Virus record (IMG/VR): IMGVR_UViG_3300038393_002131
Strand: one strand, 5' to 3'
Source: a virus
Lineage: Duplodnaviria; Heunggongvirae; Uroviricota; Caudoviricetes
DNA length: 64,000 bases
A model generated the notes under the pieces. That model was not told the DNA's origin. It did not search any database and saw only the letters and a list, made by a program, of their open reading frames with translations. The position numbers and the translations under genes were made by a program. Below are positions 2,973 to 28,333 of the stretch, piece by piece (the stretch's first letter is position 1; the number at the start of each line of letters is the position of its first letter).

Positions 2973-2979
2973 CAGCGGT

Positions 2980-5079: not shown

Positions 5080-5105
5080 CGGGGGTCGCAGTCTGTGGGG
5101 GCGGG

Positions 5106-5276: not shown

Positions 5277-5318
5277 CGCGGGTGCTCCTAGGTGAGTGTG
5301 GTTGGGATCGGTGTGCGG

Positions 5319-5597: not shown

Positions 5598-5836
5598 GCG
5601 GCCGACCCCGACACGGGCGAGTCGTTGACGTAGACGCGGAGGGCGGGGTCGTCCTCGGCGGTGTCAATGTCGACGACGAGGTACGGCGCGCCACCGTCGG
5701 ACGGGTGGTGCCAGTAGACAGCGACGCGGGCGGCGTCGTGCTCGACGGCGACAACGGCATCGCCGTGCGGGTGGTCGATGGTGTGCGTGACGCCGCCGTC
5801 CTGCGCGGTGTCACTGGTGACGGTGAGCTCGCTCAC
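5594..5836 (-). CDS. hypothetical protein (~81 aa)
   Basis: GTG start at 5836 with RBS GAGGAG and leader hairpin ccggcgacgctgtgccgg; the Pro/Arg-rich 5' part of the track ORF is rejected. Confidence 0.45.
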   Translation of the reverse strand: MSELTVTSDTAQDGGVTHTIDHPHGDAVVAVEHDAARVAVYWHHPSDGGAPYLVVDIDTAEDDPALRVYVNDSPVSGSAA

Positions 5837-6032
5837 GGGGGTGCTCCTCGGGGTGTCGGTCCGGCGACGCTGTGCCGGTGGGGGTGTGCGACCCGGCGCG
5901 GGTGGGTGGTGGTTGGGGTCACTTGCCCGCGCCGGGCCTGTCGTGGGGTGTTGCCCCGGGCCGGGGCCCTCGCGCTTGGCAGGGTGTGGGTCGTCACCTG
6001 CGTGCGCTCGGGCTCCCGGGGCCCCGGGGAGG

Positions 6033-6689: not shown

Positions 6690-6775
6690 GGGGATTCCCC
6701 TTCTCGGTGTGTCCTTGTCGGGGACGCTTGTCCCGACACCCCTGACTTTAGGGGCTGTGCACTACAGGGTCAATG
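6690..6775 (-). promoter_or_regulatory. promoter-leader cassette (TTGACC-N17-TAAAGT; hairpin GTCGGGACAAGCGTCCCCGAC; RBS GAGAAGGGG)
   Basis: Read directly; closest match to the sigma-70/SigA-type consensus. Confidence 0.6.
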
Positions 6776-6884
6776 GTTCGCGTGTCGGCGAGTCACGGCA
6801 CCGGCACGGGGCCGGCAGGTGAGGCGGTCAGCCACACCCACACGACCCCGGCCAGCACAGACAGGGCAACGGCCTGCCAGACCT

Positions 6885-8087
6885 TCACGCGACCAGTCCG
6901 GCGCGCTCCATGATGTTGCGTACCACGTCCTCCTCATACTCGTCCCAGCACGCGGCGAGCAGCTGGTCGAGGCGGTCCGGCTCGGCGTCCTCGACTGCCT
7001 GGGCGGCCGTCTCGGCGCGGGTCAGGTAGCGGCCCGTCTCGATCCAGCTCTGCCGCGACGCGCTCGACTCCGTGTCGAGGTCGCCCTCGACGTGCGTCCA
7101 CGTGACGCCGAACCGCTCGGCGAGCTTGCCGGCCACCTGCTCGGCCTCCTCGCTCGTGGGGAAGTCCGCGACGTGCATGGTCGGCCGGGCGGTGTAGGTG
7201 ACGTAGATGCCCCACACGTCGGGGGCCTCGCCGTCCTCGGCGGGCCGGGCCTCGTCCTCGGTGACGCGGACGGCGGTCACCTCGAAGGCGTTGAGGCCGA
7301 CGGCGCGGGCCGGGAGGTACTGGCCGTGACGCTGCCAGTGGTCGAGGGACTCGTGCGACCACAGGTCCGCGTCGACGCGCTCGACGTCGTTCTTCTCGCA
7401 GCGGTCGTCGGTGTCGTCGTCACCCTGCCCGGGGCACCGGTTGTCGTCGTTGCCTCGGTGGATGAACTCGCCGCGGGTGTTGTCGAACCACACGACCGCC
7501 GCCTCGTCGGCATAGTCGATGCAGCGGCCGCACACGGCGACGGTGCGCAGGGCGCGGTCGTGGTTGTAGGTGCCGCCGTCGCGCTTGTCGACGGAGCGCC
7601 AGTAGGCCAGGGCCTCGGCCTCGGCCTGCGGGTCGGGCGTGATGTGGTTCGGCGGGGTCGGGGCCGACTCGTCGGACGAGAAGGCGCGGTGCGGCTCGGC
7701 GTGGCCCCGGAGGGCGAACGAGGTGGCGTTGTCGATGTTGAGGCGGACGGACCGGCCCCGGGTGAGGAGGGCCCGCTCGCCGTCGATGATCGACTGCTCC
7801 AAGTAGCGGATCGCGGACGTCTTGGGCTTGAGCACGCCGCGGCCGATGACCTTCTCGGGGCGGATGCGGTTCGCGCGGACGTCGTCGAGCATCCGCCTGT
7901 CGCGGACGAGCTCGCGGAGGAAGTGCTCCTCGCCCCATCCGAGCAGCTCGCCGCGCCAGATGCCGTCGAGGTAGTCGTTGACGGTGGCCGGGCGGGCCGG
8001 GACCATGCGCACCTCCTCGCGGAGCATGTAGTCGCGCAGGGTGGTCGCGGTGAAGGTGACGGGGGCCTCGGTGGTCGTGGTGCTCAT
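6885..8087 (-). CDS. hypothetical protein (~400 aa)
   Basis: Start re-assigned to M65 (MSTTTTEAP) next to a leader hairpin at ~8105-8125; acidic protein with Cys-rich segment CGRC...C...C. Confidence 0.6.
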   Translation of the reverse strand: MSTTTTEAPVTFTATTLRDYMLREEVRMVPARPATVNDYLDGIWRGELLGWGEEHFLRELVRDRRMLDDVRANRIRPEKVIGRGVLKPKTSAIRYLEQSIIDGERALLTRGRSVRLNIDNATSFALRGHAEPHRAFSSDESAPTPPNHITPDPQAEAEALAYWRSVDKRDGGTYNHDRALRTVAVCGRCIDYADEAAVVWFDNTRGEFIHRGNDDNRCPGQGDDDTDDRCEKNDVERVDADLWSHESLDHWQRHGQYLPARAVGLNAFEVTAVRVTEDEARPAEDGEAPDVWGIYVTYTARPTMHVADFPTSEEAEQVAGKLAERFGVTWTHVEGDLDTESSASRQSWIETGRYLTRAETAAQAVEDAEPDRLDQLLAACWDEYEEDVVRNIMERAGLVA

Positions 8088-8145
8088 GGGATCGTGCTCG
8101 CTCTCTGTGTCGGCCGGGACGCTGTCCGGCGGGGTGTGGGGCCCA

Positions 8146-8175
8146 CCTTGCCCGGCCGGTGTCGACCGGGCAAGG
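8146..8175 (-). terminator. hairpin terminator after gene 8186..8719
   Basis: CCTTGCCCGG / CCGGGCAAGG 10-bp stem. Confidence 0.45.
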
Positions 8176-8185
8176 GTTGTGACGG

Positions 8186-8719
8186 TCAGAGGGACGCGGC
8201 GTCCTCGGCCTCGGCGCGGGCCCGGCCGACGGTCAGGCCACGGTCGTACTCGGCCTGCTGCCAAGGGTTCTCGTACCACGTCGGCTCGGTGCCGTAGTAG
8301 CCGACGGAGTACCCCTCGGCGAACGCGGACGTCTCCTCAACGTTGCAGAGGCAGCCCTCGCGCGCGCCCGGCACGCGCTCTGCCCGCAGACGGCGCACGG
8401 TGCCACCCTCGAGCCGGAGGTCGGCGACGTCGGAGTGCAGCTGGTCGCGCGTCTGGTGGTAGGTGACGAACGTGCCTGGGGTGCCCTTCCGCTCGCCGAC
8501 GAGCATGTAGTGGACGTGCTCGCGGCCAGCGGCCAGCGCCCACCCGACGTGGTTCTCGCCGGTGTCGGCGCACTCGATGATCGGGACGTACGTGCCAGCG
8601 TTCGGGGCGTTGGTCAGGGCCTCGACGACGCGCTTGACGACGGCGTACTCCTCGTCGGTCAGGTCGAGGGCGACACCGAGGGTGTCCTCGCCGGCGAGGT
8701 AGATGAGACGTTCGGACAT
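8186..8719 (-). CDS. hypothetical protein (~177 aa)
   Basis: Start at M71 (MSERLIY); leader hairpin ggccggggacgctggcccgggcc at ~8742-8765. Confidence 0.55.
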   Translation of the reverse strand: MSERLIYLAGEDTLGVALDLTDEEYAVVKRVVEALTNAPNAGTYVPIIECADTGENHVGWALAAGREHVHYMLVGERKGTPGTFVTYHQTRDQLHSDVADLRLEGGTVRRLRAERVPGAREGCLCNVEETSAFAEGYSVGYYGTEPTWYENPWQQAEYDRGLTVGRARAEAEDAASL

Positions 8720-8807
8720 GGGATGGCTCCTTGGGTGTCGTGGCCGGGGACGCTGGCCCGGGCCGGGTGTGTCGAGCATGGCGCCGGGCGCGCGGTCCGG
8801 CAAGGGT

Positions 8808-9020
8808 TCAGATCGGCGACCCGTCCCGCAGGACGACGCCGGGTGCGATGGGGACGACGTTGACGTCGTCCGGGTAGAACGGGAGGCCGAACACGCGGAC
8901 CTGCTCGCAGTGCCGCTCCCACGCCTCACGGAGCGCCGTGAGCGCGGCCTCCGGGGACTCGGCCAGGGCGGTGAAGTCGTAGTGCCTCGTCGAGTAGGTG
9001 GCGAGGAACAGGGCGCTCAC
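8808..9020 (-). CDS. hypothetical protein (70 aa)
   Basis: Compact ORF; 4-nt overlap with 9017..9373. Confidence 0.5.
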   Translation of the reverse strand: MSALFLATYSTRHYDFTALAESPEAALTALREAWERHCEQVRVFGLPFYPDDVNVVPIAPGVVLRDGSPI

Positions 9021-9373
9021 CGGTCGGCCTCGAACCCGGTCGCGGTGCGGGCGTGGAACCAGTCCCCCGTGGGCCCGTACGCGCCGTCGACGCGCAGCCA
9101 GACCTTCCAGTCGGGGCCGAGGACCGCGCGGTAGACGCGGCCGCGCAGGTGGGCGGTGCCGGGCTGGCCTGCGGGCTGGCCGCGGTGGTGGTCCGGGTTC
9201 GGGTAGAGGCCGTGCTCGAGGACCGTGCCGTCGGTGAGGACGACGACGGTGTCGGGCGTGTGCGGCTCATTCGCGGTCGCGGTCGGGCACTCGACGCGCG
9301 GGTGGCGCTGGGTGGCGACGTGGTCGCCCCGGTCGGCGCAGGTGGCGTGCTCGCGGGTGAGGTTGATGGTCAT
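9017..9373 (-). CDS. hypothetical protein (118 aa)
   Basis: Protein-like ORF with RBS upstream. Confidence 0.55.
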   Translation of the reverse strand: MTINLTREHATCADRGDHVATQRHPRVECPTATANEPHTPDTVVVLTDGTVLEHGLYPNPDHHRGQPAGQPGTAHLRGRVYRAVLGPDWKVWLRVDGAYGPTGDWFHARTATGFEADR

Positions 9374-9416
9374 GGGGATGCCCCGTTCTGCTCGATGGTG
9401 CGGGATGGGTGGGCCG

Positions 9417-9779
9417 TCAGGCGACGGCGGGAAGGTCGGCCAGCTCCTGCGCGATGAACCCGACCTCCCAACGGTTGAGGCCGTTAGCGGCGTGCGTCGG
9501 CTTGCCGTGCACGTCCTGCCACGCGGGCAGGTCGTAGCGGGCCACGTCGTAGCGGTCGATGCCGTAGCCGCGCACCACGAGGACGGTGTCGTCGGCCCGG
9601 TAGATCGTGACGGCGAGGTCGACGTCGCGCGGGTCGAGCTCGACGTCGTACTCGATGCGCTCGTGCCCGAGGTACTGGCCGAGGACGTCGAGGCCGGTCA
9701 GCGACAGCAGGCGGGTGCGGCGGCTGACGGTGCCGGTGTGGGCCGGGGTGACGACCGGGATGGTGGACGTGGCGTGCAT
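9417..9779 (-). CDS. hypothetical protein (~120 aa)
   Basis: Start at M22 (MHATSTI); cassette at 9780-9865 (TTCCCT-N17-TACGCT, hairpin with AGAGCGTC loop). Confidence 0.5.
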   Translation of the reverse strand: MHATSTIPVVTPAHTGTVSRRTRLLSLTGLDVLGQYLGHERIEYDVELDPRDVDLAVTIYRADDTVLVVRGYGIDRYDVARYDLPAWQDVHGKPTHAANGLNRWEVGFIAQELADLPAVA

Positions 9780-9865
9780 GGGATGCCTCCGTGGCGTGTC
9801 TCGGTCGGGACGCTCTCCGACCTGATGTGCAGTAGCGTACACCGGCGCAACGACAGAGGGAAGGG

Positions 9866-10033
9866 TCAGCGCAACGTCACGACGAGGCCGGCCAGCATCA
9901 CCACCACCGCGGCGACGACGCCGGCCAGGGCGGGCCCTCCCCCGTCCGTGCGCGGCACCGCCCGCCGCCGGGCATCCCGGGCGGCGAGCGGCACGAACAG
10001 CGCAGCGGCGGCGAGCAGGGCCAGCAGGGTCAC
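9866..10033 (-). CDS. small two-helix membrane protein (~55 aa)
   Basis: GTG at 10033 overlaps the TGA of the methyltransferase gene (GTGA); strongly hydrophobic. Confidence 0.3.
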   Translation of the reverse strand: MTLLALLAAAALFVPLAARDARRRAVPRTDGGGPALAGVVAAVVVMLAGLVVTLR

Positions 10034-11727
10034 GCGGCGTAGGCGTCGGCGACGACGCCCATGATGTCGCGGGAGCACGGCGGGCACACAGCGTTCCCGG
10101 CCATCTTCACGAGGTCACGCTTCGAGGGGGTCTTGCCCTTCTCGTCCTTGACGTCCCACCGGTAGTTGCGCGGGAACGCCATGCCCGCGGCGGCCTCGTG
10201 CGGTTGCAGCATCCGCAGGTAGCACTCTGACACGAGCTCCTCGGCGCGGCGCAGGTCGCCCGGGTCGACAGCCGGGCGGGGCTTGCGCGGGTCGGCGTGC
10301 ACGAGGGACTGGTGCGCGGCCGTGGTGATGGTCCGCAGGTACTCGGTGACGGGCGTGCTCATCTCGGACCCGCCGTGGTTGTTCCGCATGATGAGGGCGT
10401 GGCGGTCAACGGTCGTGACCGTGTCCATCGCGTCGCTGACCGGCTTCGCCGTCTTGCCGTTGCCGTAGTAGGACTGGATCAGGCTCATGTTGCCGCCCGA
10501 GCCGGTGATGGTCCGCAGGAACTCGTCGACGGGCGTGGAGTGGCGGGCCGGGTCGCCGCCCGGGACGCCGTAGTGGCGGGTGATGAGGGCGTGGTGGTTG
10601 CCGGACGCGGTGAACGTCGCCGCGGGCTCGGTCAGCGGCCGCGTCTCGGAGTGGCCGCCGCGCAGCTCGGCCATGAACGGGGCCGTGGCGAGAGCGGTCT
10701 CGGCGCGGGTCGTCTGCGTGCGCAGCGCCTCCCACATCGCCTGCGCGTCCTTGCCGGCGCGGCCCTCGACGGGCACGGCCAGGGCGTACGCCTCGCGGGT
10801 CGTCAGGGTGCGCAGGGCCTCCTCGACGGAGCGGGCGTCCTCGTTCCACGTCCCGCCCGACGGGACGACGGTCGGCGTCATCCAGTAGCGGGCGATCCCG
10901 GCCGCGATCCTCGCGCGGGTCTTGGCCGCGAGGCGGTCGCCGATCAGGTCGCCCTTGAGGGACCAGTCAATCGCGGTGTAGGCGGGCAGGTAGCCCGGCT
11001 CGACGACGGTGCCGCACGCGCCGTGCACGTAGACGTAGGACTGGCGGTAGCGGCCGACGGTCGCGCCGCCCTTCCACGACTGGTTCGCCTCGATCATCGC
11101 GTCGCACTTCGGGCAGTACGCCTTCGGCCGGAGGATCCGGTCGAGGTCGGGGACCGGGTTGCCCTTGATCCACGCCACGATGAAGATGCGGTCGCGGGAC
11201 TGCGGGGCGGGCATCCCGAACGTCTGAGCGTGCATCGCGTTGAGCGACACGACCCGGAACTCGTAGCCGAGCGCGGTCAGCTGGCGGCGCCACTCGTACC
11301 ACGCGAGCCGGTACTTCGCCTGGACGGCAATGTCGACGACGTTCTCCACGATCACGACGGAGTAGCGGTGGTGCTCGACGAACTTGAGCACGTCGAACAT
11401 CAGCAGCCGGGAGCGGTGCGTCGCCTCGTCCGAGAGCGGGTCGGCGAACAGGCCTTCCTCGATCTTCTCGCGGGCCTTGCCCGATGCCTGGGACCACTTC
11501 GTGCACTCCGGGGAGGCCCACAGGACGTCGGTGCGCTTGAAGAACGACGGGCGTTCCATGTGGAGGTCGACGGCGGCGTGGTCGGTGTCGGGGTGGTTCT
11601 GGTTGTGGACCTCGATCGCGAGCTTCCAGTGGTTCGCGGCCTGCGTCACCCGGACACCGGGGATCTGCACCATGCCGGTCGAGGACCCGCCTGCGCCTGC
11701 GAAGTGGTCAGTGACGGTGAGGGACAT
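10030..11727 (-). CDS. DNA (cytosine-5)-methyltransferase
   Basis: Motif I FAGAGG, motif IV-like SPECTKWS, motif VI VIVENV; 565 aa. Confidence 0.85.
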   Translation of the reverse strand: MSLTVTDHFAGAGGSSTGMVQIPGVRVTQAANHWKLAIEVHNQNHPDTDHAAVDLHMERPSFFKRTDVLWASPECTKWSQASGKAREKIEEGLFADPLSDEATHRSRLLMFDVLKFVEHHRYSVVIVENVVDIAVQAKYRLAWYEWRRQLTALGYEFRVVSLNAMHAQTFGMPAPQSRDRIFIVAWIKGNPVPDLDRILRPKAYCPKCDAMIEANQSWKGGATVGRYRQSYVYVHGACGTVVEPGYLPAYTAIDWSLKGDLIGDRLAAKTRARIAAGIARYWMTPTVVPSGGTWNEDARSVEEALRTLTTREAYALAVPVEGRAGKDAQAMWEALRTQTTRAETALATAPFMAELRGGHSETRPLTEPAATFTASGNHHALITRHYGVPGGDPARHSTPVDEFLRTITGSGGNMSLIQSYYGNGKTAKPVSDAMDTVTTVDRHALIMRNNHGGSEMSTPVTEYLRTITTAAHQSLVHADPRKPRPAVDPGDLRRAEELVSECYLRMLQPHEAAAGMAFPRNYRWDVKDEKGKTPSKRDLVKMAGNAVCPPCSRDIMGVVADAYAA

Positions 11728-11799
11728 GGGGTGGCTCCTTCGTTCGTGTCGGTGCCGGGGACGCTGTCCCGGCTGGTGATGCTGAGTTTGGAGCGGGTC

Positions 11800-11839
11800 G
11801 GCCCGGGGGTCAACGGTTTCGGCCGTCGGCCCCCGGGCC
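11800..11839 (-). terminator. hairpin terminator after gene 11845..12150
   Basis: GGCCCGGGGG / CCCCCGGGCC 10-bp stem with an 18-nt loop. Confidence 0.45.
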
Positions 11840-11844
11840 GGGGT

Positions 11845-12150
11845 TCACTGGTTGTAGTCGGTGAAGATGCGCCAGCTGGACCATGAGCCCTCGGGGTCGC
11901 CCTCGATGCTGAGCGCGTCGCGGACGACCTCGAACGGTGCGCCGACGGCGTCGAGGAACGCCTTCGCGAGCAGGACGGAGGCGTAGTTCTCGCCGAAGGA
12001 GTAGACGTGCTCCCACGACGTTGCCGGCGTGACGAGGTCGTTGCCCTCGTCACGGAACCGGCCGGCGGGGTCACGGGCGAGGAGACTCCCGGCCGGGGCC
12101 CATCCGTCGGCCAGCTGGTCGAACTCTCGCGGGGACATTCGGACGGTCAT
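11845..12150 (-). CDS. hypothetical protein (~101 aa)
   Basis: Start at M142 of the track ORF (MTVRMSP); the His/Arg-rich upstream frame is rejected; terminator at 11800-11839 downstream. Confidence 0.5.
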   Translation of the reverse strand: MTVRMSPREFDQLADGWAPAGSLLARDPAGRFRDEGNDLVTPATSWEHVYSFGENYASVLLAKAFLDAVGAPFEVVRDALSIEGDPEGSWSSWRIFTDYNQ

Positions 12151-12215
12151 GACGGCGCGGCTGTCGCGCGGCGGGTGCTGCACGGGTCGTTCTCCCTGTC
12201 GTGGGTGGGTGTGAG

Positions 12216-12809
12216 TCACTTCGTGGTGAAGACGGCGTCCTCGTGTTCGAGGGTCGGGCTGTACTCCATCACGAGGTCGGTGGTGGTGGTGACGCCGTAG
12301 CCGACCTTGAACTTGGCCGTGCGGCCCGGCCGGATGCTCGAGTTGGGGGTGCCCTCGAGGCCCTTGTCGGTGTCGAACACCGCGCTGGCCTCGGTCTCGC
12401 CCGACATGAGGTTCGGGGTGGCGAACAGGTCGAGCTTCTTCTTGGAGCCGTTCTTGATGGTGACGGTGAACATGACGAACTTCTTGAAGCCGTCGGTGCC
12501 CGCGGCGTACGTCGACGGGGTGAACTTCTTGGGCGTGGAGACGGTGACGCTGGTGCCGTCCTCCCACGTCCACGTCTGGCCGAACCGGATCTCGGACGGG
12601 GCCTCGGGCTCGTCCGGCGTGGTGGCGGCGTCCTCGGCCGTCGTGTCGGTGTCGGGGGTGGGGAAGTTGCCGGGGTCGCTCGTCGTCGACGAGGAGGCGG
12701 CAGCCGGGGCCTTGCCCGGCGTTGCGGCGTTGATGGTGCCGGTGCCGCAGCTGGCGAGGGCCAGGACGCTGAGGCTGGCGGCGGCGATGACGGTGGTGAG
12801 CTTCTTCAT
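12216..12809 (-). CDS. secreted lipoprotein (~197 aa)
   Basis: ATG at 12809; signal peptide MKKLTTVIAAASLSVLALASCG with a lipobox; Thr/Pro-rich linker then beta-rich domain; the track's 5' extension is rejected. Confidence 0.65.
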   Translation of the reverse strand: MKKLTTVIAAASLSVLALASCGTGTINAATPGKAPAAASSSTTSDPGNFPTPDTDTTAEDAATTPDEPEAPSEIRFGQTWTWEDGTSVTVSTPKKFTPSTYAAGTDGFKKFVMFTVTIKNGSKKKLDLFATPNLMSGETEASAVFDTDKGLEGTPNSSIRPGRTAKFKVGYGVTTTTDLVMEYSPTLEHEDAVFTTK

Positions 12810-12852
12810 GGGTTGGTGTTCCTGTTCGGTGTGAGTTCTGCTGCGCGGGTGG

Positions 12853-13389
12853 TCACTTGGAGTCGGTGATGGTGATGTTCGTGCCGTGGTCCGGGTGGAA
12901 GGTCCACCGTGCGGTGAACTGCTCCCACGAGTCGGTCTGCGTGCCGTCCATGGCGCGGGTCTGGCCGATGTGGTCCATGACGCGCGACGGGGCCTTGAGG
13001 AAGGCGAGGACGCACTCGGCGCTGCCCCACGCGTCGGGGCCAGGGTTCTCCTCGGCGGACGCGTTGCGGATCGTGAGGGTGTGGCCCTCGTCCTCGGGCT
13101 GGGCGTGCGTCTTGCACTTCGCGACCGCGTCCTCGATGGGCTGCGCCTTGGTGACGGAGGAGTAGATCCCGACGCCCGCGCCGGCGAGGAGGAGCGCGGC
13201 CACCGCGCCGCCGATGAGGACAGGCCTGCGGTGGTGCTTCTTCGGGGCCGGGGCGCGGGTCGCGCCGGGGGCGATGCCGTCGAGGTCTGCCCATCCGGCA
13301 GTCGGGGCGGCACTGTGAGGCGGCAGGTCGGATGCGGCGGGCTGGGCAGGCGGCGGGTAGGGACCGTACGGCGTGGGCTGATCGGACAT
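12853..13389 (-). CDS. membrane-anchored protein with Pro-rich N-terminus (178 aa)
   Basis: Single TM helix (VLIGGAVAALLLAGAGVGIY) followed by a Cys-containing ectodomain. Confidence 0.55.
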   Translation of the reverse strand: MSDQPTPYGPYPPPAQPAASDLPPHSAAPTAGWADLDGIAPGATRAPAPKKHHRRPVLIGGAVAALLLAGAGVGIYSSVTKAQPIEDAVAKCKTHAQPEDEGHTLTIRNASAEENPGPDAWGSAECVLAFLKAPSRVMDHIGQTRAMDGTQTDSWEQFTARWTFHPDHGTNITITDSK

Positions 13390-13458
13390 GGGTGGATCTC
13401 CCCTTCTCGGGTGTCGGTGATGAGGACGCTGACTCAGGTGGTGCTTGCGGGTCGTGCT

Positions 13459-13494
13459 CCCCTGTGCTCAGCCAGTCTCGACCGAGCACAGGGG
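13459..13494 (-). terminator. hairpin terminator after gene 13527..13919
   Basis: CCCCTGTGCTC / GAGCACAGGGG 11-bp stem. Confidence 0.45.
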
Positions 13495-13526
13495 GTTGTC
13501 ACAGGTTTGGACGAATCGGGCGACTG

Positions 13527-13919
13527 CTACGCGGGCGGGCCCGACATGTTGCGGATGAGGGCCTGCCAGTCGGTGTGCTCGAGCCACGTCTTTTCCATCA
13601 GGTGCGCTGTCACGTTGAGCAGCTTGCGGTGGGTGCGGATCCGCTCGACGGGGAAGGAGTAGTCGTTGTTGCCTGGGCGCGGGTCGCAGGCGTCGTGGTG
13701 GGCGCGCCAGTGCACCTCGTCGGGCATGGCGGCGAAGTCGGCCATGGAGTAGGAGACGAAGCCGTGCTCGTCGGTGTGCTCCTTCTCGAAGGCCCGATAC
13801 TCCTCCTCGCGGCGGTTCACCTCGGCGATGTCGATGTGCAGGTGCCCCTCGGTGTCGGCGATGGGCTCCTTGCACACGGCGCAGGGCCACGTCAGGTCGG
13901 TCGTCTCGATGTTCGTCAT
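13527..13919 (-). CDS. hypothetical Cys/His-containing protein (130 aa)
   Basis: CAVC...H..H cluster; terminator hairpin at 13459-13494 downstream. Confidence 0.55.
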   Translation of the reverse strand: MTNIETTDLTWPCAVCKEPIADTEGHLHIDIAEVNRREEEYRAFEKEHTDEHGFVSYSMADFAAMPDEVHWRAHHDACDPRPGNNDYSFPVERIRTHRKLLNVTAHLMEKTWLEHTDWQALIRNMSGPPA

Positions 13920-13932
13920 GGTCGCGATCCTG

Positions 13933-14490
13933 TCAGGCGGTGACAGCGGCGAGGAGGACCCGCGCTCGGGGCTCGCGGTCGCCGTAGATGTCCGGGTGTG
14001 AGGCCGCGTCGGCGAGGTACTTCTCGGCGACCTCGCGGACGTCGTCGAGCTCGTCAGCGGTGAGCCGGTCGAGGCTCGGGGCCTCAGCCTCCCCGTAGAT
14101 GAAGTCGGTCGCCACCTCCCAGCCGACGCGGCAGATGTTCATGAACGCGGAGCGGTCATAGAACGCGGCCTTGTAGAAGATGCTCACGCGGCGGATGCCG
14201 CGCTCGTCGACGATGTAGGACCACATGGCGTGGGAGGACCCCTCGCGCTTCCACCCGTCGGGCAGGGTCGCCGGGCGGAACATCGGGTCCTCGGGGTCCG
14301 GGTCGCCGAAGGTGAAACCGAGCGCGGCGAAGTCCTCTGGTTCGCCGTGGTTGAGGCGCGTCGGCAGGTACGTGCCACCGACGACCTCGGTCTGCCCGGC
14401 GCGCTCCTGCGCCTCGATGCCGCCCGGGGACGCGCTGATGGCGAGCTTGACGATGTTGTCGTCCTTGCTGGTGTTGCGGGGCTTGGTCAC
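13933..14490 (-). CDS. hypothetical protein (~186 aa)
   Basis: GTG at 14490 overlaps the TGA of gene 14487..14933; RBS GAAGGA; the Arg-rich 5' half of the track ORF is rejected. Confidence 0.5.
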   Translation of the reverse strand: MTKPRNTSKDDNIVKLAISASPGGIEAQERAGQTEVVGGTYLPTRLNHGEPEDFAALGFTFGDPDPEDPMFRPATLPDGWKREGSSHAMWSYIVDERGIRRVSIFYKAAFYDRSAFMNICRVGWEVATDFIYGEAEAPSLDRLTADELDDVREVAEKYLADAASHPDIYGDREPRARVLLAAVTA

Positions 14491-14933
14491 GGTCGGTCCT
14501 TCACGGTGGTCGATGGAACAGGGAGGTGCCGGTCGAGGATCGCGAGGACAGCCTCGTCCTCCATCCAGCCGTGCGTGTCGTCGTCGCCCTGGGCGGCGAG
14601 GAACACCTCCGGCTCGTCGGCCATGACGTCGTGCGGCCAGTCGGAGTAGTCCGTCGGCCAGCCGGGCTGCCCCAGCTCGAGCGTCCAGTGGCCGTGACGG
14701 GCCCGGAAGTAGAACGGGCGACCGTCGACGTTGCGGCCGGTTGCCTGCGTCGGGCACGCGCCGCCGAGCTCGGCGATCTCGTAGTCGCGGCCGGCGCGGA
14801 TGCGCTCCCAGCGTGCGGCCTCGCGGATCTTGCCGCAGTCGTCGCACGGGACGGTGTCGGCCCACAGGACGAGGGCGTCGAACGTGGTGCCGCAGTCCGG
14901 GCAGGTGCGGGCCTCGGTGTCGAAGAAGCCCAC
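14487..14933 (-). CDS. hypothetical zinc-ribbon protein (148 aa)
   Basis: CPDC...CDDC pairs at the N-terminus. Confidence 0.55.
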   Translation of the reverse strand: MGFFDTEARTCPDCGTTFDALVLWADTVPCDDCGKIREAARWERIRAGRDYEIAELGGACPTQATGRNVDGRPFYFRARHGHWTLELGQPGWPTDYSDWPHDVMADEPEVFLAAQGDDDTHGWMEDEAVLAILDRHLPVPSTTVKDRP

Positions 14934-14936
14934 GGG

Positions 14937-15449
14937 TCAGCCCTGCTTTCGGAGGTCGTTGGCGAGGGCGACGATCTTGGACTGTCGCTCGCGCGGGAGG
15001 GCGGCCAGCTGCTCGGCGAGAGCGCGCTCGGCGGCGGTGATCGGCTTGCGGAAGATGCGGTTCGACTCGGCGACCCTGGGGTTCACGGGTCGGGCCGGGG
15101 CGCGGTAGGTCTGGCGGATGCGCTCTGCCTGGGCGGCGTCCTCGGCGGCCCACGCCTCGTAGGCCGTCATGTCCGGGCCGTGGTTGTGGTCGGTCTGGCG
15201 GTCGATCACGTCGAGGTTGCCCTGCACCCACTGCTTCGCGTCGTTCACGGACCAGAACTCGGCCGTGCCGGTCAGGTCAGGGTCCACGACTGCCCGCCAC
15301 GCCCAGCCGTCCCGAATGCCATCCTCGGGGGCGAGCGGGGTCTTGACGAGGACGGGCGCGTCGCGGCCGGCGCGCTCGATCACGATGGGGTGGTCGAGGC
15401 ACATGTGGCTCCCATTCGGGAGGCGCTTCCAGCGGAGTCGCGTGGTCAT
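14937..15449 (-). CDS. hypothetical protein (170 aa)
   Basis: Protein-like ORF in the operon. Confidence 0.55.
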   Translation of the reverse strand: MTTRLRWKRLPNGSHMCLDHPIVIERAGRDAPVLVKTPLAPEDGIRDGWAWRAVVDPDLTGTAEFWSVNDAKQWVQGNLDVIDRQTDHNHGPDMTAYEAWAAEDAAQAERIRQTYRAPARPVNPRVAESNRIFRKPITAAERALAEQLAALPRERQSKIVALANDLRKQG

Positions 15450-15452
15450 GGC

Positions 15453-15692
15453 TCAGGCTCCGTAGGTGGGGAGGTCGAGGGACGGGGTGTCGTCGTGGCC
15501 ACCCCGGGCCCGACCGGCCTCGTCGTCGTCGGCGCGGGCGTCCTGCTCCCGCTCGATCGCGAGCCGCAGGTCGAGCGTGTCGTCGTCGTCGAGGTCCTCG
15601 AGGACGTCCGCGGCGGCGGCGAGCTCGTCGTCGGTGCGCCGGGCCGGTGCGCGGCCGATGGCGCGGGCCTCGTCGATGGTCATGCTGCTCAT
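15453..15692 (-). CDS. small acidic protein (79 aa)
   Basis: Type-example promoter-leader cassette immediately upstream at 15693-15782. Confidence 0.5.
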   Translation of the reverse strand: MSSMTIDEARAIGRAPARRTDDELAAAADVLEDLDDDDTLDLRLAIEREQDARADDDEAGRARGGHDDTPSLDLPTYGA

Positions 15693-15782
15693 GGGGATGC
15701 CCCTTCTGTGTGTCGCGGGCCGGGACGCTTCCGACCCCCTGTGAGGGACTTTAGCGGCTGTGCACTAGCAGGGCAAGGGTTG
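15693..15782 (-). promoter_or_regulatory. type example of the reiterated early promoter-leader cassette
   Basis: Minus sense: TGA-CAACCCTTGCCC(-35)-N17-TAAAGT(-10)-...GGTCGGAAGCGTCCCGGCC hairpin-CGCGACACACAGAAGGGGCATCCCC-ATG. Confidence 0.6.
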
Positions 15783-16829
15783 TCACGCCGACACGCTCGA
15801 CGCGGCCAAGGCGCGCTCGTCGATCACCGCGGCGAGCCGAGCCCCGACCCACTCCCCCAACTTCGCGTGGACACAGTTGCCGAGCATCGTGAACCGGGCC
15901 GACGGCGGCACCCCGGGCACATCGGTCCAGCCGTCGTCGAACCCGGACAGCCGCTCCCACTCCGTGAGGGTCAGAGTGCGGAGCCGGCCGTCGTCGACGA
16001 GCAAGTGCTTCTGCCGCAGCGGGCCGCCCGGGTCGTAGCAGGCGAGGGTGTTCGCGACCTCGGACCGGACCCACGTCTCCCAGCCGCCCTCCTCGATGGA
16101 GGCACGGGCGTTCGCGGACTTGCGCCACACGGTCACGGCGTCGCGGCGACGTCCTCCACTAGGGCGAGCAGCTCCGGGTCGACTCGCGCCATGCCCGGGG
16201 AGAGCAGCCGCGGCAGGAACTTCCGGGCCTGTGCCGGTGTCATCCAGCACTGACCAGGCGACGGTGGGATCTCCCGAACGATGTCCGACCAAGATGATTC
16301 GCGGACGGTCTTGGAGGGTGTCAAGGTGTCCCCCGTCCAGCAGGCGCCACGCGTACCCATACCCGAGGTCCCCCAAGGCACTTTGCGCGTGCCACCAATC
16401 GCGGCCGCCGTTAACGGTGAGAGACCCGTCGGGATTCTCGATGACGACCCACTCGGGTCGGGCCTCGTCGACGAGCCTGATCTGCTCGTAGAACAGGCTC
16501 GAGTCTTTGCCTCGGAGGCCGGTTCGTTTCGTGGCTCCCTTGCTGGTCTGCTTGCAGGGGAATCCCCCCACAAGGACAGTTGGGTCACCGAGGTCTGCTC
16601 CGTTGACATTGCGCACGTCCTCCAAGATCGGGATGCCTGGGAAGCGCGTGGCGAGCACGGAGCGGGCGTGGACGTCCTTCTCCACCATGACGGTGCAGCG
16701 CATGCGGGCGTGCATTCCGAGGTCGAGTCCTCCGATGCCGGAGAACAGGGACGCGAACGTCGTGGGTGTGTGCATGGGTTGGCGCTTCCTGTGTGTCGCG
16801 CGGGGTCGCTTTCCCGCGTCACAGCCCAT
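15783..16829 (-). CDS. DNA (cytosine-5)-methyltransferase, Dcm-like
   Basis: Motif I FASLFSGIGGLDLG, motif IV GFPCKQTS, motif VI-like VVIENP; 348 aa. Confidence 0.8.
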   Translation of the reverse strand: MGCDAGKRPRATHRKRQPMHTPTTFASLFSGIGGLDLGMHARMRCTVMVEKDVHARSVLATRFPGIPILEDVRNVNGADLGDPTVLVGGFPCKQTSKGATKRTGLRGKDSSLFYEQIRLVDEARPEWVVIENPDGSLTVNGGRDWWHAQSALGDLGYGYAWRLLDGGHLDTLQDRPRIILVGHRSGDPTVAWSVLDDTGTGPEVPAAAALPGHGASRPGAARPSGGRRRDAVTVWRKSANARASIEEGGWETWVRSEVANTLACYDPGGPLRQKHLLVDDGRLRTLTLTEWERLSGFDDGWTDVPGVPPSARFTMLGNCVHAKLGEWVGARLAAVIDERALAASSVSA

Positions 16830-16947
16830 TTAGCTGGTGTGCGCTATGGGGGGTCAATGGGGTGGAAGCTACGGTTCAGCTAAGACGTCGTGATCGGCAG
16901 GTTCTCGTGCCGCCATGTGCCGCCTGAGCTGCGGAAACGGGCATGCG

Positions 16948-16981
16948 AAAGGCCCGCCCCGGGCGTGCGGGGCGGGCCTTT
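16948..16981 (-). terminator. terminator after the LysM gene
   Basis: AAAGGCCCGCCCC-gggcgtg-CGGGGCGGGCCTTT then a T-rich run in minus sense. Confidence 0.55.
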
Positions 16982-16989
16982 CGTGAGGG

Positions 16990-17445
16990 TCAGCGCGCGT
17001 ACGGGTTGACCGCGACGCACTCCTTCGGGAGGGCCTTGATGATGAGCCACTGGCCCGGCTTGATCGCGGTGCCGTGGAGGCCGTTGAGCTTCTTGATCGT
17101 CTTGTAGGCCATGCCGTTGCCGTACGCCTTGACGGCGAGGTTCCAGAGCGTGTCGCCCTTGCGGACGACGCGGGCGTAGGGCCACTGGACGAACGTGTCG
17201 TCGGCGCACAGCTCGGCGACGATCGCACGAACCTTGCTGTACTTCGGGGAGGCCTTGATCTGGCCGACCGAGTAGTTCCACGGGAAGGTGTTCCCGTCGA
17301 TGGTGCAGGCCTTCTTCGTCCACGTGGACTGGAACTCGCACTCGATGGGGACGGTGTAGCCGGGGCCGGCGTTGGCGGCGGTCGCGGCCGCGCCGATGAG
17401 GATGCCGGTGGCGGCGAGGGTGGCGGCGATCTTGGTGCGGATCAT
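16990..17445 (-). CDS. secreted LysM-domain protein (151 aa)
   Basis: Signal peptide MIRTKIAATLAATGILIGAAATAANA; C-terminal LysM (VVRKGDTLWNLAVKAYGNGMAYKTIKKLNGL...IKPGQWLII); own promoter-leader at 17446-17506 and terminator at 16948-16981. Confidence 0.7.
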   Translation of the reverse strand: MIRTKIAATLAATGILIGAAATAANAGPGYTVPIECEFQSTWTKKACTIDGNTFPWNYSVGQIKASPKYSKVRAIVAELCADDTFVQWPYARVVRKGDTLWNLAVKAYGNGMAYKTIKKLNGLHGTAIKPGQWLIIKALPKECVAVNPYAR

Positions 17446-17506
17446 GGGGTGTCGGTCCTGCTTTCGTGTCGTGGCCGGGGACGCTTCCCGGCCGGTGAAA
17501 CGGACA
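17446..17506 (-). promoter_or_regulatory. promoter-leader cassette of the LysM gene (TTGTGT-N17-TAATGT; hairpin CCGGGAAGCGTCCCCGG)
   Basis: Read directly. Confidence 0.5.
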
Positions 17507-17947
17507 TTAGCGACCTAACGCTAGTGACACAAGGGAATCGTCGTCGGAGTAGACGACGCGCTCGATACCGGCGGCCGTGAGGAGCTTCTGGCAACCGGGG
17601 CATGGCGGGTCGGTGATGTACGCCGTCGCTCCTCGAGCGTCGGCCCGGTCGGCGTACAGGAGTGCGTTCGCCTCGGCGTGGACGGCGACGCAGTACCCGG
17701 GCGAGCCGGGCCGGTCGTAGTCGCCGAGGCCGGCCACCTGCTCGTAGGTGAGGAGGCCTCGCGGGCACTCCCCCGCCAGGCATGACGCTCCCCCGGACGG
17801 GCCGCCGTTGTAGCCGGTGCTGACGATCCGGTGGTCCTTGACGAGGACGCAGCCGACGGTGCGGCGGCGGCAGTCGGCTCGAGCGGCAACGGCCGTCGCG
17901 ATGCCGGCGAAGTAGTCGTCCCAGCCGGGTCGGGTCAGTTGTTCCAT
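17507..17947 (-). CDS. dCMP/cytidine deaminase-family protein
   Basis: Start at M72 (MEQLTRPG); zinc ligand motifs HAEANAL and PCPGCQ. Confidence 0.8.
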   Translation of the reverse strand: MEQLTRPGWDDYFAGIATAVAARADCRRRTVGCVLVKDHRIVSTGYNGGPSGGASCLAGECPRGLLTYEQVAGLGDYDRPGSPGYCVAVHAEANALLYADRADARGATAYITDPPCPGCQKLLTAAGIERVVYSDDDSLVSLALGR

Positions 17948-18423
17948 GCGTTCCTCGCGTCGTTGTCGGGTGGGGGCGGGCAGGGGGTGCGTGTGCCGTC
18001 GTTGGCGAACAGGGCCCAGCCGTGCGCGGTGCGCACCGGGACGCGCTCGGCGTCGACGAACTGGCCGTTGCGCGGGATCGCGTAGCCGTCGCGCTCGAAC
18101 GTCTCCCGGTCGTGGTCCTTGTCGCGGTGGCAGCCGTCGCCGGCGTTGCCGGACCCGCACAGGGTGAGCAGCCAGCCAGGGCCGTTGATCGTGGCGGCGA
18201 GTTCGCCGTGGGTGCCGCCCGCTCCGCGGCCGCGGCGGTGGTCGAGGTCCCGGGCGGGTTTGCCGCAGCGGACGCAGCGGCCGCCGTCGCGCGCGTGCAC
18301 GAGTGCGCGCGTGTCTGTGGTGGGGCCGGTGTCGCGGTGCGCGCGTGGTGCGCGCGTGGTGCGCGCGTGCGGTGCGCGCGCAGGCGCGGGGCTGGTGCGC
18401 GCGGCCGGGGCCGCGGCCTTCAT
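17935..18423 (-). CDS. HNH endonuclease-like protein (~162 aa)
   Basis: Start at M93 (MKAAAP); CVRCGKPARDLDHRRGRG...N...CHRDKDH pattern; the N-terminal region is encoded by GTGCGCGCG tandem repeats. Confidence 0.5.
   Translation of the reverse strand: MKAAAPAARTSPAPARAPHARTTRAPRAHRDTGPTTDTRALVHARDGGRCVRCGKPARDLDHRRGRGAGGTHGELAATINGPGWLLTLCGSGNAGDGCHRDKDHDRETFERDGYAIPRNGQFVDAERVPVRTAHGWALFANDGTRTPCPPPPDNDARNAWNN
18290..18420. repeat. tandem GTG(G/C)TGCGCGCG repeats inside the HNH gene 5' region
   Basis: gtggtgcgcgcgtggtgcgcgcgtgcggtgcgcgcgcagg..., encoding an HARTTRAPRAH-like reiterated peptide. Confidence 0.5.
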
Positions 18424-22499: not shown

Positions 22500-22807
22500 G
22501 CGAGCATCCAGCCGCGGGTGACCTCCGAGAGGCGGGGGTCGTCGTCGGACGGGCCGTTGACGACCTCGTCGATGAGGGTCGCGGCCCACTCGAGCGCGTC
22601 TTGCTCGTCGGTGACGCCGCGATAGTTCGAGGCGTGCTCGTTGATGCAGCCGTCGGTCGCGCACACGGGACGGAACGTGCCGTCGGCGGTGACCGTGACG
22701 GACGGCTCGTGGCCCTCGACCATGGCGAATCCCTTGAGCGGGATCCGCGGGAGGGCGTCGGCGCGGCCGGTGGCGAGCAGCGCGGGGGTGCGGGTTGCAC
22801 GGGTCAT
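22496..22807 (-). CDS. hypothetical protein (103 aa)
   Basis: Cassette at 22808-22899 (TTCCAC-N17-TAACGT, hairpin with AAAGCGTC loop, RBS AAGAGGGG). Confidence 0.5.
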   Translation of the reverse strand: MTRATRTPALLATGRADALPRIPLKGFAMVEGHEPSVTVTADGTFRPVCATDGCINEHASNYRGVTDEQDALEWAATLIDEVVNGPSDDDPRLSEVTRGWMLA

Positions 22808-22899
22808 GGGGATGCCCCTCTTGTGTGTCGTGGCCGGGGACGCTTTCCCAGCCGGTGACCCGACGTTAGCAGATGTGCACTACTGGTGGAAGGGTTGGG
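22808..22899 (-). promoter_or_regulatory. promoter-leader cassette (TTCCAC-N17-TAACGT; hairpin with AAAGCGTC loop)
   Basis: Read directly. Confidence 0.5.
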
Positions 22900-23316: not shown

Positions 23317-23366
23317 GGCCTGCACGGTGACCGGTCGGGGGGCTTGTGTCGCGTCCACGCATGGCG

Positions 23367-28327: not shown

Positions 28328-28333
28328 ACAGCC

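Follow-up and report, generated by a model that had tools for sequence, protein, structure and literature searches.

Short motifs reiterated upstream of genes have been described in actinophages as start-associated sequences (SAS) and extended SAS (ESAS), in mycobacteriophages of Cluster K (Pope et al. 2011, PMC3203893) and also in Cluster EF Microbacterium phages (PMC7302621). Their function is without a known mechanism, and a host or phage binding factor has been suspected (PMC3203893, PMC7302621). Here we describe a reiterated element in a 64-kb stretch of DNA (IMG/VR record IMGVR_UViG_3300038393_002131; hereafter the window, to which all positions refer) that is part of the genome of a large Streptomyces-type phage; among deposited phages, Streptomyces phage Gilgamesh (129 kb) comes closest, its capsid being 60% identical. 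An expression module of ~85 bases heads about 28 of its non-structural genes and is composed, in order, of a host-type promoter, a short RNA hairpin whose loop is fixed, and a ribosome site; its invariant core is the leader, not the promoter. SAS and ESAS are likewise reiterated, cluster-specific, in a single orientation and confined to the non-structural arm; the SAS and the ribosome site overlap, a few bases ahead of a start codon that is ATG almost without exception, and the consensus differs between sub-lineages, as it does here. The preliminary description of the window had called the element comparable to the SAS yet different in sequence, and this is what was found: distribution, orientation and ATG are alike, and the asymmetric 13-bp SAS consensus (GGGATAGGAGCCC or GGGAAAGGACCCC), which lies 3-7 bp ahead of start codons, gave 2 matches in the window with up to 2 mismatches, neither at a cassette, against 1.6 expected. 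A single copy of the Cluster EF consensus, GGGAAAGGACCCC, lies at 63291-63303 on the minus strand, 9 nt upstream of the capsid start, and is within chance.

On the minus strand, positions 15690-15782 read TGA-CAACCC-TTGCCC-N17-TAAAGT-N9, a hairpin (GGGTCGG AAGCGTC CCGGCCC), GC, GACACAC, AGAAGGGG, CATCCCC and ATG, matching exactly the anatomy first described for 15693-15782. In general terms, the leader consists of a variable, covarying G+C stem, a loop ending in AGCGUC, GACAC, a Shine-Dalgarno (SD) sequence and CCC-ATG. A covariance model of the hairpin and GACAC, built from 16 copies, finds 27 sites at E ≤ 0.1 in the 64 kb, 25 on the minus and 2 on the plus strand, each co-oriented with its downstream gene (27/27); a 28th copy at 29331, weak by the model (11.6 bits), was added by regular expression, and two more copies lie just outside the left window edge. 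The same model gave one marginal match (E 0.21) on 1.5 Mb of other actinophage loci, which are mostly unrelated prophages returned by an SSB probe of IMG/VR with ~15 true relatives among them. On genome and metagenome loci retrieved with a cassette 20-mer, it matched only at the 3 seed positions themselves. Simple pattern counts agree: AGCGTCCC has 18 exact matches in the window versus 5.7 expected, and GCGTC-N4-16-GACA[CG] has 28 minus-strand matches versus 12 +/- 3.4 expected, 25 of them 13-25 nt upstream of a predicted start. The reiteration is genuine, with an enrichment far above chance.

The register to the gene is equally regular. All copies have a start codon in the same orientation 11-24 nt after GACAC, 28/28 are co-oriented with their gene and 26/28 lie within the non-structural arm; the start is ATG in 26/28, and CCC stands directly before it in 20/28 cassette genes versus 12/65 other genes. 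The leader heads 26/32 of the intergenic gaps of at least 60 nt in the non-structural arm, which corresponds to about 26 of the ~63 genes there, the remainder being translationally coupled operon members; the wording that the cassette precedes most early genes was too strong. All 12 copies previously listed as clear were borne out, those given as 29030-29053 and 16830-16890 being the promoter halves of the hairpins at 28989 and 16793-16820. Among the 15 listed as partial, 13 were recovered; there is no copy at ~33665, and the one at ~58935 is the -10 (CAGCGT) of another promoter class. The copies at 13411, 39516, 42760 and 29331 are additional to that list.

The evidence that the leader is an RNA element comes from its pattern of variation. 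The stem is 4-7 bp long (mostly 5-7) and its sequence differs from copy to copy (GGCCCC/GGGGCC, GGTCGG/CCGACC, GATCGG/CCGATC, GAGCCC/GGGCTC, GGGCGG/CCGCCC), while the loop of 7-9 nt has an invariant AGCGUC end in 26/28 copies, the two deviants being UUGCGUC and AGCGAC. Between the stem and GACAC, which is GACAG in two copies, there are 1-5 unpaired bases. In the alignment, 88.7% of stem cells are paired versus 59.7% in shuffles (0/500), pairing falls to 28-55% when the partners are slid by 1-3 columns, 7/7 stem pairs have changes on both sides (model-fitted alignment) and the covariation score is 0.632 versus 0.173 in shuffles (0/500); as they come from paralogous copies of one genome aligned to the model, these numbers are somewhat inflated, a point against the mechanism weighed further below. 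The complementarity of the stem arms is plain in the raw sequences too. Non-Watson-Crick pairs inside the defined stems are 4 G.U and no A.C, which indicates the sense strand. Both compensatory change and a strand-specific G.U bias, the generic marks of a structured cis-regulatory RNA, are present, and this loop-conserved, stem-covarying hairpin reads as a specific sense-strand signal of RNA (or single-stranded DNA). The preliminary description had treated the G+C stem-loop as one part of a promoter-leader cassette, and a promoter model does not explain a conserved loop on covarying stems.

It could be argued that the AGCGTC(C) core is instead a DNA site, stoperator- or operator-like, for a phage DNA-binding protein acting on RNA polymerase, the inverted repeats being incidental or aiding DNA extrusion. 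Such a site would be a short, asymmetric, conserved intergenic sequence in a single orientation to transcription, as are the stoperators of L5 and R4; the core would fall at about +12 to +18 of the predicted transcript, and the apical GGAC..GTCC is palindromic in many copies. However, the arms vary yet stay complementary, with the double changes just described, for which a duplex-DNA site has no need, the mismatches are G.U only and on the sense strand, the loop length ranges from 7 to 9 nt, and the distance to SD and ATG is tightly constrained. We regard a DNA site as quite improbable.

In predicted leader ensembles the hairpin dominates, with a mean unpaired probability of 0.16 for the 5' arm, an SD about half accessible and energies of -9 to -16 kcal/mol. 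Rfam 15 gave no match, either in a scan of the whole window at gathering thresholds or in one of 1-18000 at E ≤ 1. The phage recurs in several JGI and Logan metagenome assemblies at 99.9-100% identity; in this comparison of strains with low variation, 28 single-nucleotide polymorphisms were counted, almost all at third codon positions and none within a leader hairpin. Several other candidates were discarded. A pseudoknot between loop GCGUC and GACAC would have at most 3-4 pairs and is not kept in Gilgamesh; AGCGTC and GACAC do not form a -35/-10 pair, the gap between them varying from 6 to 11 nt; and the features that define integron attC sites, REP/RAYT elements, CRISPR repeats, tRNA arms and PyrR/CsrA sites, as generally known, are absent from the sequence. 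The 28 copies are as follows, with loops given in brackets or by sequence.

15690-15782, minus strand: cassette of the finding; TTGCCC-N17-TAAAGT, block TAGTGCACAGCCGCTAA, hairpin GGGUCGG[AAGCGUC]CCGGCCC, GACACAC, GAAGGGG, CAUCCCC, ATG 15692
630-682, minus strand: leader only; loop CGAGCGUC, GACAC, SD, ATG 632; 12-bp stem-loop before, no -10
1036-1118, minus strand: cassette; TTGACC-N18-CAAGAT, degenerate block, loop CAAGCGUC, ATG 1038
2001-2049, minus strand: leader only; loop CGAGCGUC, ATG 2003; 12-bp stem-loop before
2879-2967, minus strand: leader; loop CAAGCGUC, ATG 2881; upstream 14-bp perfect stem GAACCCTTGCCGGG/CCCGGCAAGGGTTC, whose arms supply TTGCCG-N18-AAGGGT
3964-4046, minus strand: full cassette; TTCCCC-N18-TAAAGT, block TCGTGCACAGCCGCTAA, loop ACGAGCGUC, ATG 3966
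4953-5037, minus strand: cassette before DpdA; TTGCCA-N17-CATGGT, loop CGAGCGUC, ATG 4955
5834-5881, minus strand: leader only; loop ACAGCGUC, GTG 5836
6687-6773, minus strand: full cassette; TTGACC-N17-TAAAGT (also found by a generic sigma-70 scan), block TAGTGCACAGCCCCTAA, loop ACAAGCGUC, ATG 6689
8085-8173, minus strand: cassette; TTGCCC-N17-CAAGGT from stem-loop arms, loop ACAGCGUC, ATG 8087
8717-8803, minus strand: cassette; TTGCCG-N17-CATGCT, loop CCAGCGUC, ATG 8719
9777-9862, minus strand: cassette; TTCCCT-N17-TACGCT, loop AGAGCGUC, ATG 9779
11725-11813, minus strand: cassette before a C5 methylase; TTGACC-N17-CAAACT, loop ACAGCGUC, ATG 11727
13387-13440, minus strand: leader only; weak 4-bp stem, loop UCAGCGUC, ATG 13389; 11-bp stem-loop before
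16773-16857, minus strand: cassette before the second C5 methylase; TTGACC-N19-TAAATG (poor), block TAGCGCACACCAGCTAA, loop AAAGCGAC, start moved to ATG 16775
17443-17532, minus strand: full cassette; TTGTGT-N17-TAATGT, perfect palindrome TAGCG-TTAGGT-CGCTA, loop AAGCGUC, ATG 17445
22805-22891, minus strand: full cassette at the head of a ~5-kb operon; TTCCAC-N17-TAACGT, block TAGTGCACATCTGCTAA, loop AAAGCGUC, ATG 22807
25835-25929, minus strand: cassette divergent from the sigma operon; TTGCGT-N18-TACAGT, loop ACAGCGUC, ATG 25837
28964-29056, minus strand: cassette before SSB; TAGCCA-N17-TACGGT, loop ACAAGCGUC, ATG 28966
29309-29359, minus strand: weak leader copy (11.6 bits); loop AGCAGCGUC, GACAG, ATG 29311
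32136-32204, minus strand: leader; loop ACAAGCGUC, ATG 32138; TATGCT 4 nt upstream, terminator-like stem before, no -35
32497-32584, minus strand: cassette; TTGACG-N17-TACCGT, loop AAAGCGUC, ATG 32499
34662-34742, minus strand: cassette; TTGCCC-N17-TACGCT, palindrome TAGCG-CCTGTA-CGCTA, loop ACAAGCGUC, ATG 34664
39497-39580, minus strand: cassette; TTGCCC-N17-GAAACT, loop AUUGCGUC, ATG 39499
41947-42042, minus strand: cassette before the AAA-ATPase; TTGGCG-N17-TAGCGT, block TAGCGTGCAGTTACTAA, loop AGAGCGUC, GACAG, GTG 41949
42738-42802, minus strand: weak copy; mini-hairpin of the type GGA[ACAGCG]UCC, GACAC, ATG 42740; TACGAT 6 nt upstream
59845-59922, plus strand: full cassette; TTGCGT-N17-TAACGT, perfect palindrome TAGCG-CACAGT-CGCTA, loop AAGCGUC, open reading frame (ORF) 59920-60078
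63428-63504, plus strand: full cassette at the head of a rightward operon; block TAGCGTTGACTCGCTAAAGT, TTGACT-N17-TAGCGT, loop AAGCGUC, ATG 63502

Upstream of the leader, 19/28 regions contain the relaxed geometry TT[GC]NNN-N16-18-NANNNT, for which dinucleotide shuffles yield 1.6 +/- 1.2, with 6 as the highest value, and random positions in the genome yield 0.9; the strict form TTGNNN..TANNNT occurs in 9 copies versus 0.2 in shuffles. The housekeeping -35/N17/-10 geometry is consequently kept beyond the copies that had been aligned by eye. Fifteen copies have a spacing of 17 nt and four have one of 18 nt, the -35 begins with TTG or TTC in 19/28 copies (consensus TTGNCC), and a -35 resembling TTGACA with a TAnnnT -10 at 17 +/- 1 nt has the sequence features of a housekeeping sigma-70/sigma-A (HrdB) promoter. 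Three copies with unrelated spacers (32518, TTGACG-17-TACCGT; 25854, TTGCGT-18-TACAGT; 9796, TTCCCT-17-TACGCT) keep only the hexamers and their spacing, which fits selection for promoter function rather than recent copying. In 17/19 copies, 5-11 nt separate the end of the -10 from the first base pair of the stem; transcription is expected to start 6-8 nt after a -10, so that 0-4 unpaired bases are predicted before the hairpin. Both isolated plus-strand genes, lying among minus-strand operons, carry complete cassettes, and independent gene calls agree on both; since such genes need a promoter of their own, this is the strongest support from within the window for initiation of transcription by the cassette.

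The promoter half nevertheless does not reduce to a plain host promoter present at every leader. The geometry supports the host sigma-70 reading of the preliminary description, but 9/28 copies fail even the relaxed test, so the promoter is not ubiquitous; that reading also undervalued the hairpin and missed a palindrome. Five of the failing copies (653, 2020, 5853, 13411 and 29331) have no recognisable -10. The -35 is extended to AACC(C/G)TTGNC in 14/19 copies, with the 10-mer AACCCTTGCC. In 10 or 11 copies, a common block of 17-22 nt forms a palindrome, TAGYG-N6-YGCTAA, which overlaps the -10. The palindrome is perfect at four sites (17507, 34712, 59854 and 63423), and all block sites are at cassette promoters. 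Judged by its sequence, this palindrome looks like a candidate operator for a DNA-binding regulator besides sigma.

Some promoter-poor copies are preceded by long perfect stem-loops, and at 2897, 4973, 8107 and 8735 the stem arms (CCCTTGCC.../...GGCAAGG) themselves supply TTGCCN-N17-CAnGnT. By analogy, these arms resemble promoter-terminator coupling, which has been described as widespread in other bacteria (bioRxiv 10.64898/2026.08.19.745784). That same coupling, together with the G+C-rich nature of a hairpin between genes, might suggest that the leader hairpin is itself an intrinsic terminator or attenuator lacking a U-tract, which would end the upstream transcript and leave each gene to be transcribed singly. 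The window offers its own reference for comparison, in that bidirectional terminator-like stems of 13-15 perfect bp with loops of 4-6 nt stand at both convergent junctions (28328-28390 and 40242-40353), whereas the leader hairpin has 5-7 bp and a loop of 7-9 nt. Terminators without poly-U tails are reportedly present in the phiC31 early region; here, however, GACAC follows the stem every time and no copy has the T-run that would make an intrinsic terminator of it, the hairpin lies downstream of its own promoter, its conserved loop would go unexplained, and separate terminator-like stems already stand upstream of several leaders. A generic terminator scan found none at the cassettes. We consider a terminator very improbable. 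Gene-by-gene transcription, as originally suggested, needs terminators, and the leader hairpin has no U-tract and is unlike the genome's evident terminators; that reading is therefore not supported, and nested read-through transcripts from many internal promoters are more likely.

A second promoter class helps to place the first. The motif GAGGRC-GCGACA-CAAGC, with up to 3 mismatches, has 14 sites versus 1.0 expected, all on the minus strand:

23342-23358, minus strand: second-class site
30764-30780, minus strand: second-class site
33836-33852, minus strand: second-class site
35758-35774, minus strand: second-class site
43683-43699, minus strand: second-class site
44303-44319, minus strand: second-class site
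49006-49022, minus strand: second-class site
54560-54576, minus strand: second-class site
55306-55322, minus strand: second-class site
56012-56028, minus strand: second-class site
58378-58394, minus strand: second-class site
58960-58976, minus strand: second-class site
61756-61772, minus strand: second-class site
63400-63416, minus strand: second-class site

At 13/14 of them CAnnnT is found 17-18 nt from GCGACA (chance, 6% per site), and we write the motif as GAGGRCGCGACACAAGC-N12/13-CAnnnT and its promoters also as GCGACACAAGC. It precedes structural genes, terS/parB and four non-structural gaps that have no hairpin cassette (23358, 30780, 33852 and 35774), so that nearly every sizeable gap has one promoter class or the other. 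The same geometry is present at 10/11 sites in Gilgamesh (L001-L003), and similar sequences occur in L016, L017 and other relatives; unlike the hairpin cassette, this class is conserved in sequence across the family. A complementarity between the leader loop and GGACGC of this motif is absent in Gilgamesh and was dismissed as coincidence.

The window also encodes a sigma factor. Its sole plus-strand operon within the window body (26120-28327) comprises an ECF-like (extracytoplasmic function-like) sigma (Sigma70_r2 and r4_2, 231 amino acids (aa)), followed by proteins of 132 and 382 aa without Pfam match; the sigma module adjoins SSB in Gilgamesh too (genes 92-90), and about 12 IMG/VR relatives keep the sigma itself in synteny. 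Neither promoter class lies upstream of this operon, and no recognisable autoregulatory promoter precedes the sigma gene in the window phage or Gilgamesh. A 143-aa WhiB-family protein (PF02467 in database gene calls) is encoded at 38415-38846 on the minus strand and, by analogy, may act at the AACC extension of the -35. It can be asked, then, whether the phage sigma (26120-26815), and not the host principal sigma, reads the cassette promoter, or whether a phage activator bound at the AACC extension, for example the WhiB-like protein, is required. The presence of a sigma with regions 2 and 4 that all relatives conserve in the same position, the 10-mer nature of the -35, the conservation of the spacer over 22 nt in 10-11 copies and the encoded WhiB-family protein would all suit this possibility, as would the promoter block, which is not the same in the window as in Gilgamesh, their sigmas sharing only 35% identity. 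Region 4 of the principal sigma (sigma-A) is where Wbl proteins bind. Yet TAnnnT at 17-18 nt from TTGNCC is the signature of group 1, not the AAC/CGT of ECF sigmas, and the copies with unrelated spacers retain only two hexamers and their spacing. In an ECF promoter the AAC of the -35 and the CGT or GTC of the -10 are about 16-17 nt apart; here the AAC 5' of TTG is present, but the nearest CGT is ~13 nt away and is not conserved (variants AGTGCAC and AGCGCAC), so the cassette is no ECF (group 4) promoter, and an ECF-type reading of the AAC motif was rejected on spacing and -10. The second motif is the better target: as motif and phage sigma are both conserved in the family, the second class is the natural candidate for recognition by that sigma. 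We therefore hold a phage-read cassette promoter to be improbable; as the structural genes have the other class and the phage encodes a sigma of its own, an early or non-structural class served by the host RNA polymerase is plausible from the sequences for the cassettes, and the second motif lends indirect support to the preliminary view that they fall in a host-polymerase (early or middle) class.

About 15 IMG/VR contigs, several of 125-128 kb, share the AAA-ATPase/DnaC/ParB/TerS/SSB/sigma synteny. Deposited phages include no close DNA relative, only 60-bp Gordonia matches; an exact promoter-block scan of IMG/VR gave 0 matches, an AAA-ATPase probe in IMG/VR gave none, and a 20-mer present three times in the window had only single chance-like matches, with no multi-copy locus, in genome and metagenome collections. 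What is conserved is the architecture: the cassette sought in related phages is present as such in Gilgamesh and the IMG/VR relatives, with different sequences. Gilgamesh has about 15 copies, with a promoter-like block (C/G)ATTTCCnnTGGTGTACTATTC, a hairpin 9-10 nt later with variable stem and loop AGAGCA(A), then (G)ACCACGAAG, GAGGAACAC and ATG. The orthologous DpdA and AAA-ATPase genes carry cassettes in both phages, each in its own genome's version. Leader loops in other relatives are AGAGCA (L078), AAGAGCGA three times (L103), ACGAGCGA (L071) and ACGAGCAC (L084), the core common to the lineages being AGC(G/A). A conserved architecture with a lineage-specific sequence homogenised in each genome is expected from co-evolution with a trans factor (concerted evolution). 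We read the hairpin as a probable regulatory RNA signal, not described before, that is common to a whole family of ~126-kb phages but has diverged within it.

Some local copying is suggested within the window, where sub-variants cluster by position (copies with a 3' arm starting in G at 653-5853) and a 20-mer is common to 8753, 17484 and 22843. A selfish or neutrally spreading intergenic repeat, of the type of repetitive extragenic palindromes or miniature inverted-repeat transposable elements or propagated by gene conversion, and without regulatory role, would account for this. It would not account for position-specific conservation of loop, GACAC and hexamers amid free but complementary stems, for strict orientation and register to start codons, or for an architecture kept across lineages with different sequences, and no transposase-type gene is evident; we find such a repeat hardly credible.

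We tentatively propose, with slightly less than even confidence, that the cassette has two layers, a host-sigma promoter and an RNA leader that carries a factor-docking loop at the message 5' end. In the DNA layer, TTGNCC-N17/18-TAnnnT with its AACC extension would most likely be read by host RNA polymerase with the principal sigma (HrdB-type), and the palindrome over spacer and -10 in 10-11 copies would most simply be an operator for a dimeric phage regulator or repressor. In the RNA layer, which all copies share, transcription is predicted to start within about 0-4 nt of the hairpin base and the leader would act after initiation, the hairpin marking and protecting the message 5' end, whether that end is primary or arises from read-through RNA cleaved in the single-stranded GA↓CAC 3' of the hairpin. 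The loop would be the docking site of a lineage-specific trans factor, probably phage-encoded, that sets translation and/or stability or processing. Actinobacterial RNase E prefers RN↓CNU, with sites enriched in 5' untranslated regions and between genes (PMC10641625), and the single-stranded GA↓CAC just 3' of the stem fits this preference in part; read-through RNA could therefore be cut there, the upstream message keeping a 3' hairpin.

Besides the inflation of the covariation numbers, several points weigh against this proposal. In mycobacteria, 5' secondary structure is uncorrelated with RNase E sensitivity (PMC10641625), which weakens a pure role in 5' protection. No candidate loop-binding protein was identified in the window, which is part of the genome and most of whose proteins have no Pfam match. 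The AGC core shared by all lineages would fit a host factor too. The AACC extension and the 22-nt spacer block are more than a plain sigma-A promoter requires; specificity could therefore be determined by a phage factor. Finally, the start sites, processing and timing of cassette transcripts are predictions.

It is possible, though on balance doubtful, that the hairpin is the cis half of a new RNA-protein control system in Gilgamesh-like Streptomyces phages, in which a phage RNA-binding regulator docks on 30 or more messages while the phage ECF-like sigma reads the GAGGRCGCGACACAAGC-N12/13-CAnnnT structural promoters. Such a regulator would co-evolve with the loop (AGCGUC, AGAGCA, AAGAGCGA), could work by multi-copy antitermination, by activating or repressing translation or by guiding processing, and would switch the whole non-structural set on or off; if this were true, one loop-docking regulator would control that entire gene set through those messages.

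The genomic setting is that of a large phage with ~70% G+C and nearly all genes on the minus strand. The window encodes a phage major capsid protein (61984-63282), a 1241-aa homologue of the Gilgamesh tape-measure protein, a 1549-aa tail-region protein, SSB, TerS-like and ParB-like proteins, a DnaC/IstB-like ATPase, DpdA, two C5 DNA methylases, dCMP deaminase and the WhiB-like protein. The DNA-modification genes (minus strand, 4059-4955, 10030-11727, 15783-16775 and 17507-17947) each lie behind their own cassette or operon; besides DpdA, which inserts 7-deazaguanine, the set has a dCMP deaminase and the two C5 cytosine methylases. In Gilgamesh, DpdA (annotated "queuine tRNA-ribosyltransferase") is accompanied by a PAPS-reductase-like gene. 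For the C5 methylase at 15783-16775, the longest ORF begins at ATG 16829, and the cassette (hairpin 16793-16820, GACACAC, SD) places the start at ATG 16775 (330 aa), in agreement with the database gene call. The plus-strand ORF 59920-60078 encodes 52 aa with one transmembrane helix and an Arg-rich tail; it lies inside the structural operon in antisense orientation and converges with the gene at 60075-61436, a moron-like arrangement, and was called independently in two assemblies. In the continuation of the window past 64000 (L131, 4312-14698), the 63428-63504 cassette heads a packed rightward operon of at least 10 kb that encodes DUF5131, a metallophosphatase, an 891-aa AAA_10 (VirB4/TraG-like) ATPase and an M23 peptidase and has essentially no more cassettes. 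A phage-plasmid nature of the element is possible; ParA/ParB and FtsK-like genes are present in Gilgamesh as well. G+C repeats of the GCGCGCAC type cluster in long intergenic regions (18300-18405, 39680-39700, 40160-40290, 42070-42170, 42850-43240 and 56980-57050), with six copies about 11 nt apart at 18303-18402 and 30 matches versus 20 expected overall, strongly clustered; they could be iterons, an origin or binding sites. Gilgamesh gene 48 (L001, 31978-45852) encodes a hypothetical protein of 4624 aa between portal and capsid, and its counterpart would fall outside the window.

The two promoter classes provide a first regulatory map of an unstudied phage group with DpdA-type DNA modification, its own sigma and WhiB. 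The cassette has corrected one start (the methylase at 16775) and supported another (the 52-aa ORF at 59920), and, at ~85 nt, it represents a compact, modular promoter, leader and ribosome-binding part for high-G+C hosts. Natural loop variation across the ~126-kb phage family offers ready specificity swaps, and Gilgamesh is cultured on Streptomyces lividans.

Among known systems, the lambda nut site provides the main rival to the two-layer cassette. The hairpin (boxB-like) and the linear GACAC (boxA-like) could load a phage antiterminator onto polymerase, which would then read through G+C-rich intergenic stem-loops. A nut site is likewise a short promoter-proximal hairpin with free stem and loop-borne specificity and a conserved linear partner, here following the hairpin directly after the promoter; the boxB loop drifts between lambdoid phages, as the leader loop does between lineages. 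Many long terminator-like stems follow stop codons, some right upstream of promoter-poor leaders, so that read-through must occur. On the other hand, lambdoid genomes have two nut copies, whereas the window has 28 in 64 kb, at a fixed distance to SD and start codon that a nut site does not need. The order is reversed, since boxA stands 5' of boxB, the loop has 7-9 nt in place of the 5-nt GNRA-like pentaloop, and in several gaps the terminator-like stem is upstream, not downstream, of the hairpin. No N/Q-like protein was identified, no search having been aimed at N protein. We consider processive antitermination unlikely, and continue to prefer the host-promoter and docking-loop reading.

The operators and stoperators of actinophages (L5/Cluster A, R4, phiC31) are many short regulator sites in non-structural gaps near lytic promoters, including the L5 stoperators and the phiC31 inverted repeats with their early-promoter family, and TAGYG-N6-YGCTAA fits this description; no repressor for the palindromic block was identified in the window. 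Stoperators are, however, asymmetric 13-mers without an adjacent structured leader, and the block accounts for no more than the promoter half in 10-11 copies and leaves the hairpin leaders of all 28 unexplained. Like stabilising 5' hairpins and processing sites (Escherichia coli ompA, Bacillus subtilis aprE/SP82, T7 RNase III), the leader hairpin is predicted to stand at a message 5' end, here within 0-4 nt, and it recurs in a phage operon between cistrons, with a single-stranded, C-containing stretch just 3' of it that would suit actinobacterial RNase E; unlike the cassette hairpin, those elements need no conserved loop, and T7 RNase III sites have ~20 bp or more of double-stranded RNA versus stems of 4-7 bp here, which are not of the RNase III kind. 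It is with the SAS and ESAS that the parallel is closest. The ESAS is a second element directly upstream of the SAS in about half of sites, which counts as a likeness to the cassette, and the GGGG-N3-CCCC-ATG sub-motifs of the cassette resemble the GGG...CCC frame of the SAS; a recognisable -35/-10 promoter, in contrast, is included only in the cassette. ESAS consist of inverted repeats of 17 bp with a conserved sequence; where copies depart from it, RNA pairing is not supported, and the authors favoured a DNA-binding protein (PMC3203893). This logic is reversed here, the arms being free in sequence but complementary and the loop conserved: the SAS and ESAS have been known since 2011 without a mechanism, and in the present phage the evidence is clearly in favour of an RNA structure on the sense strand, its loop being sequence-specific.

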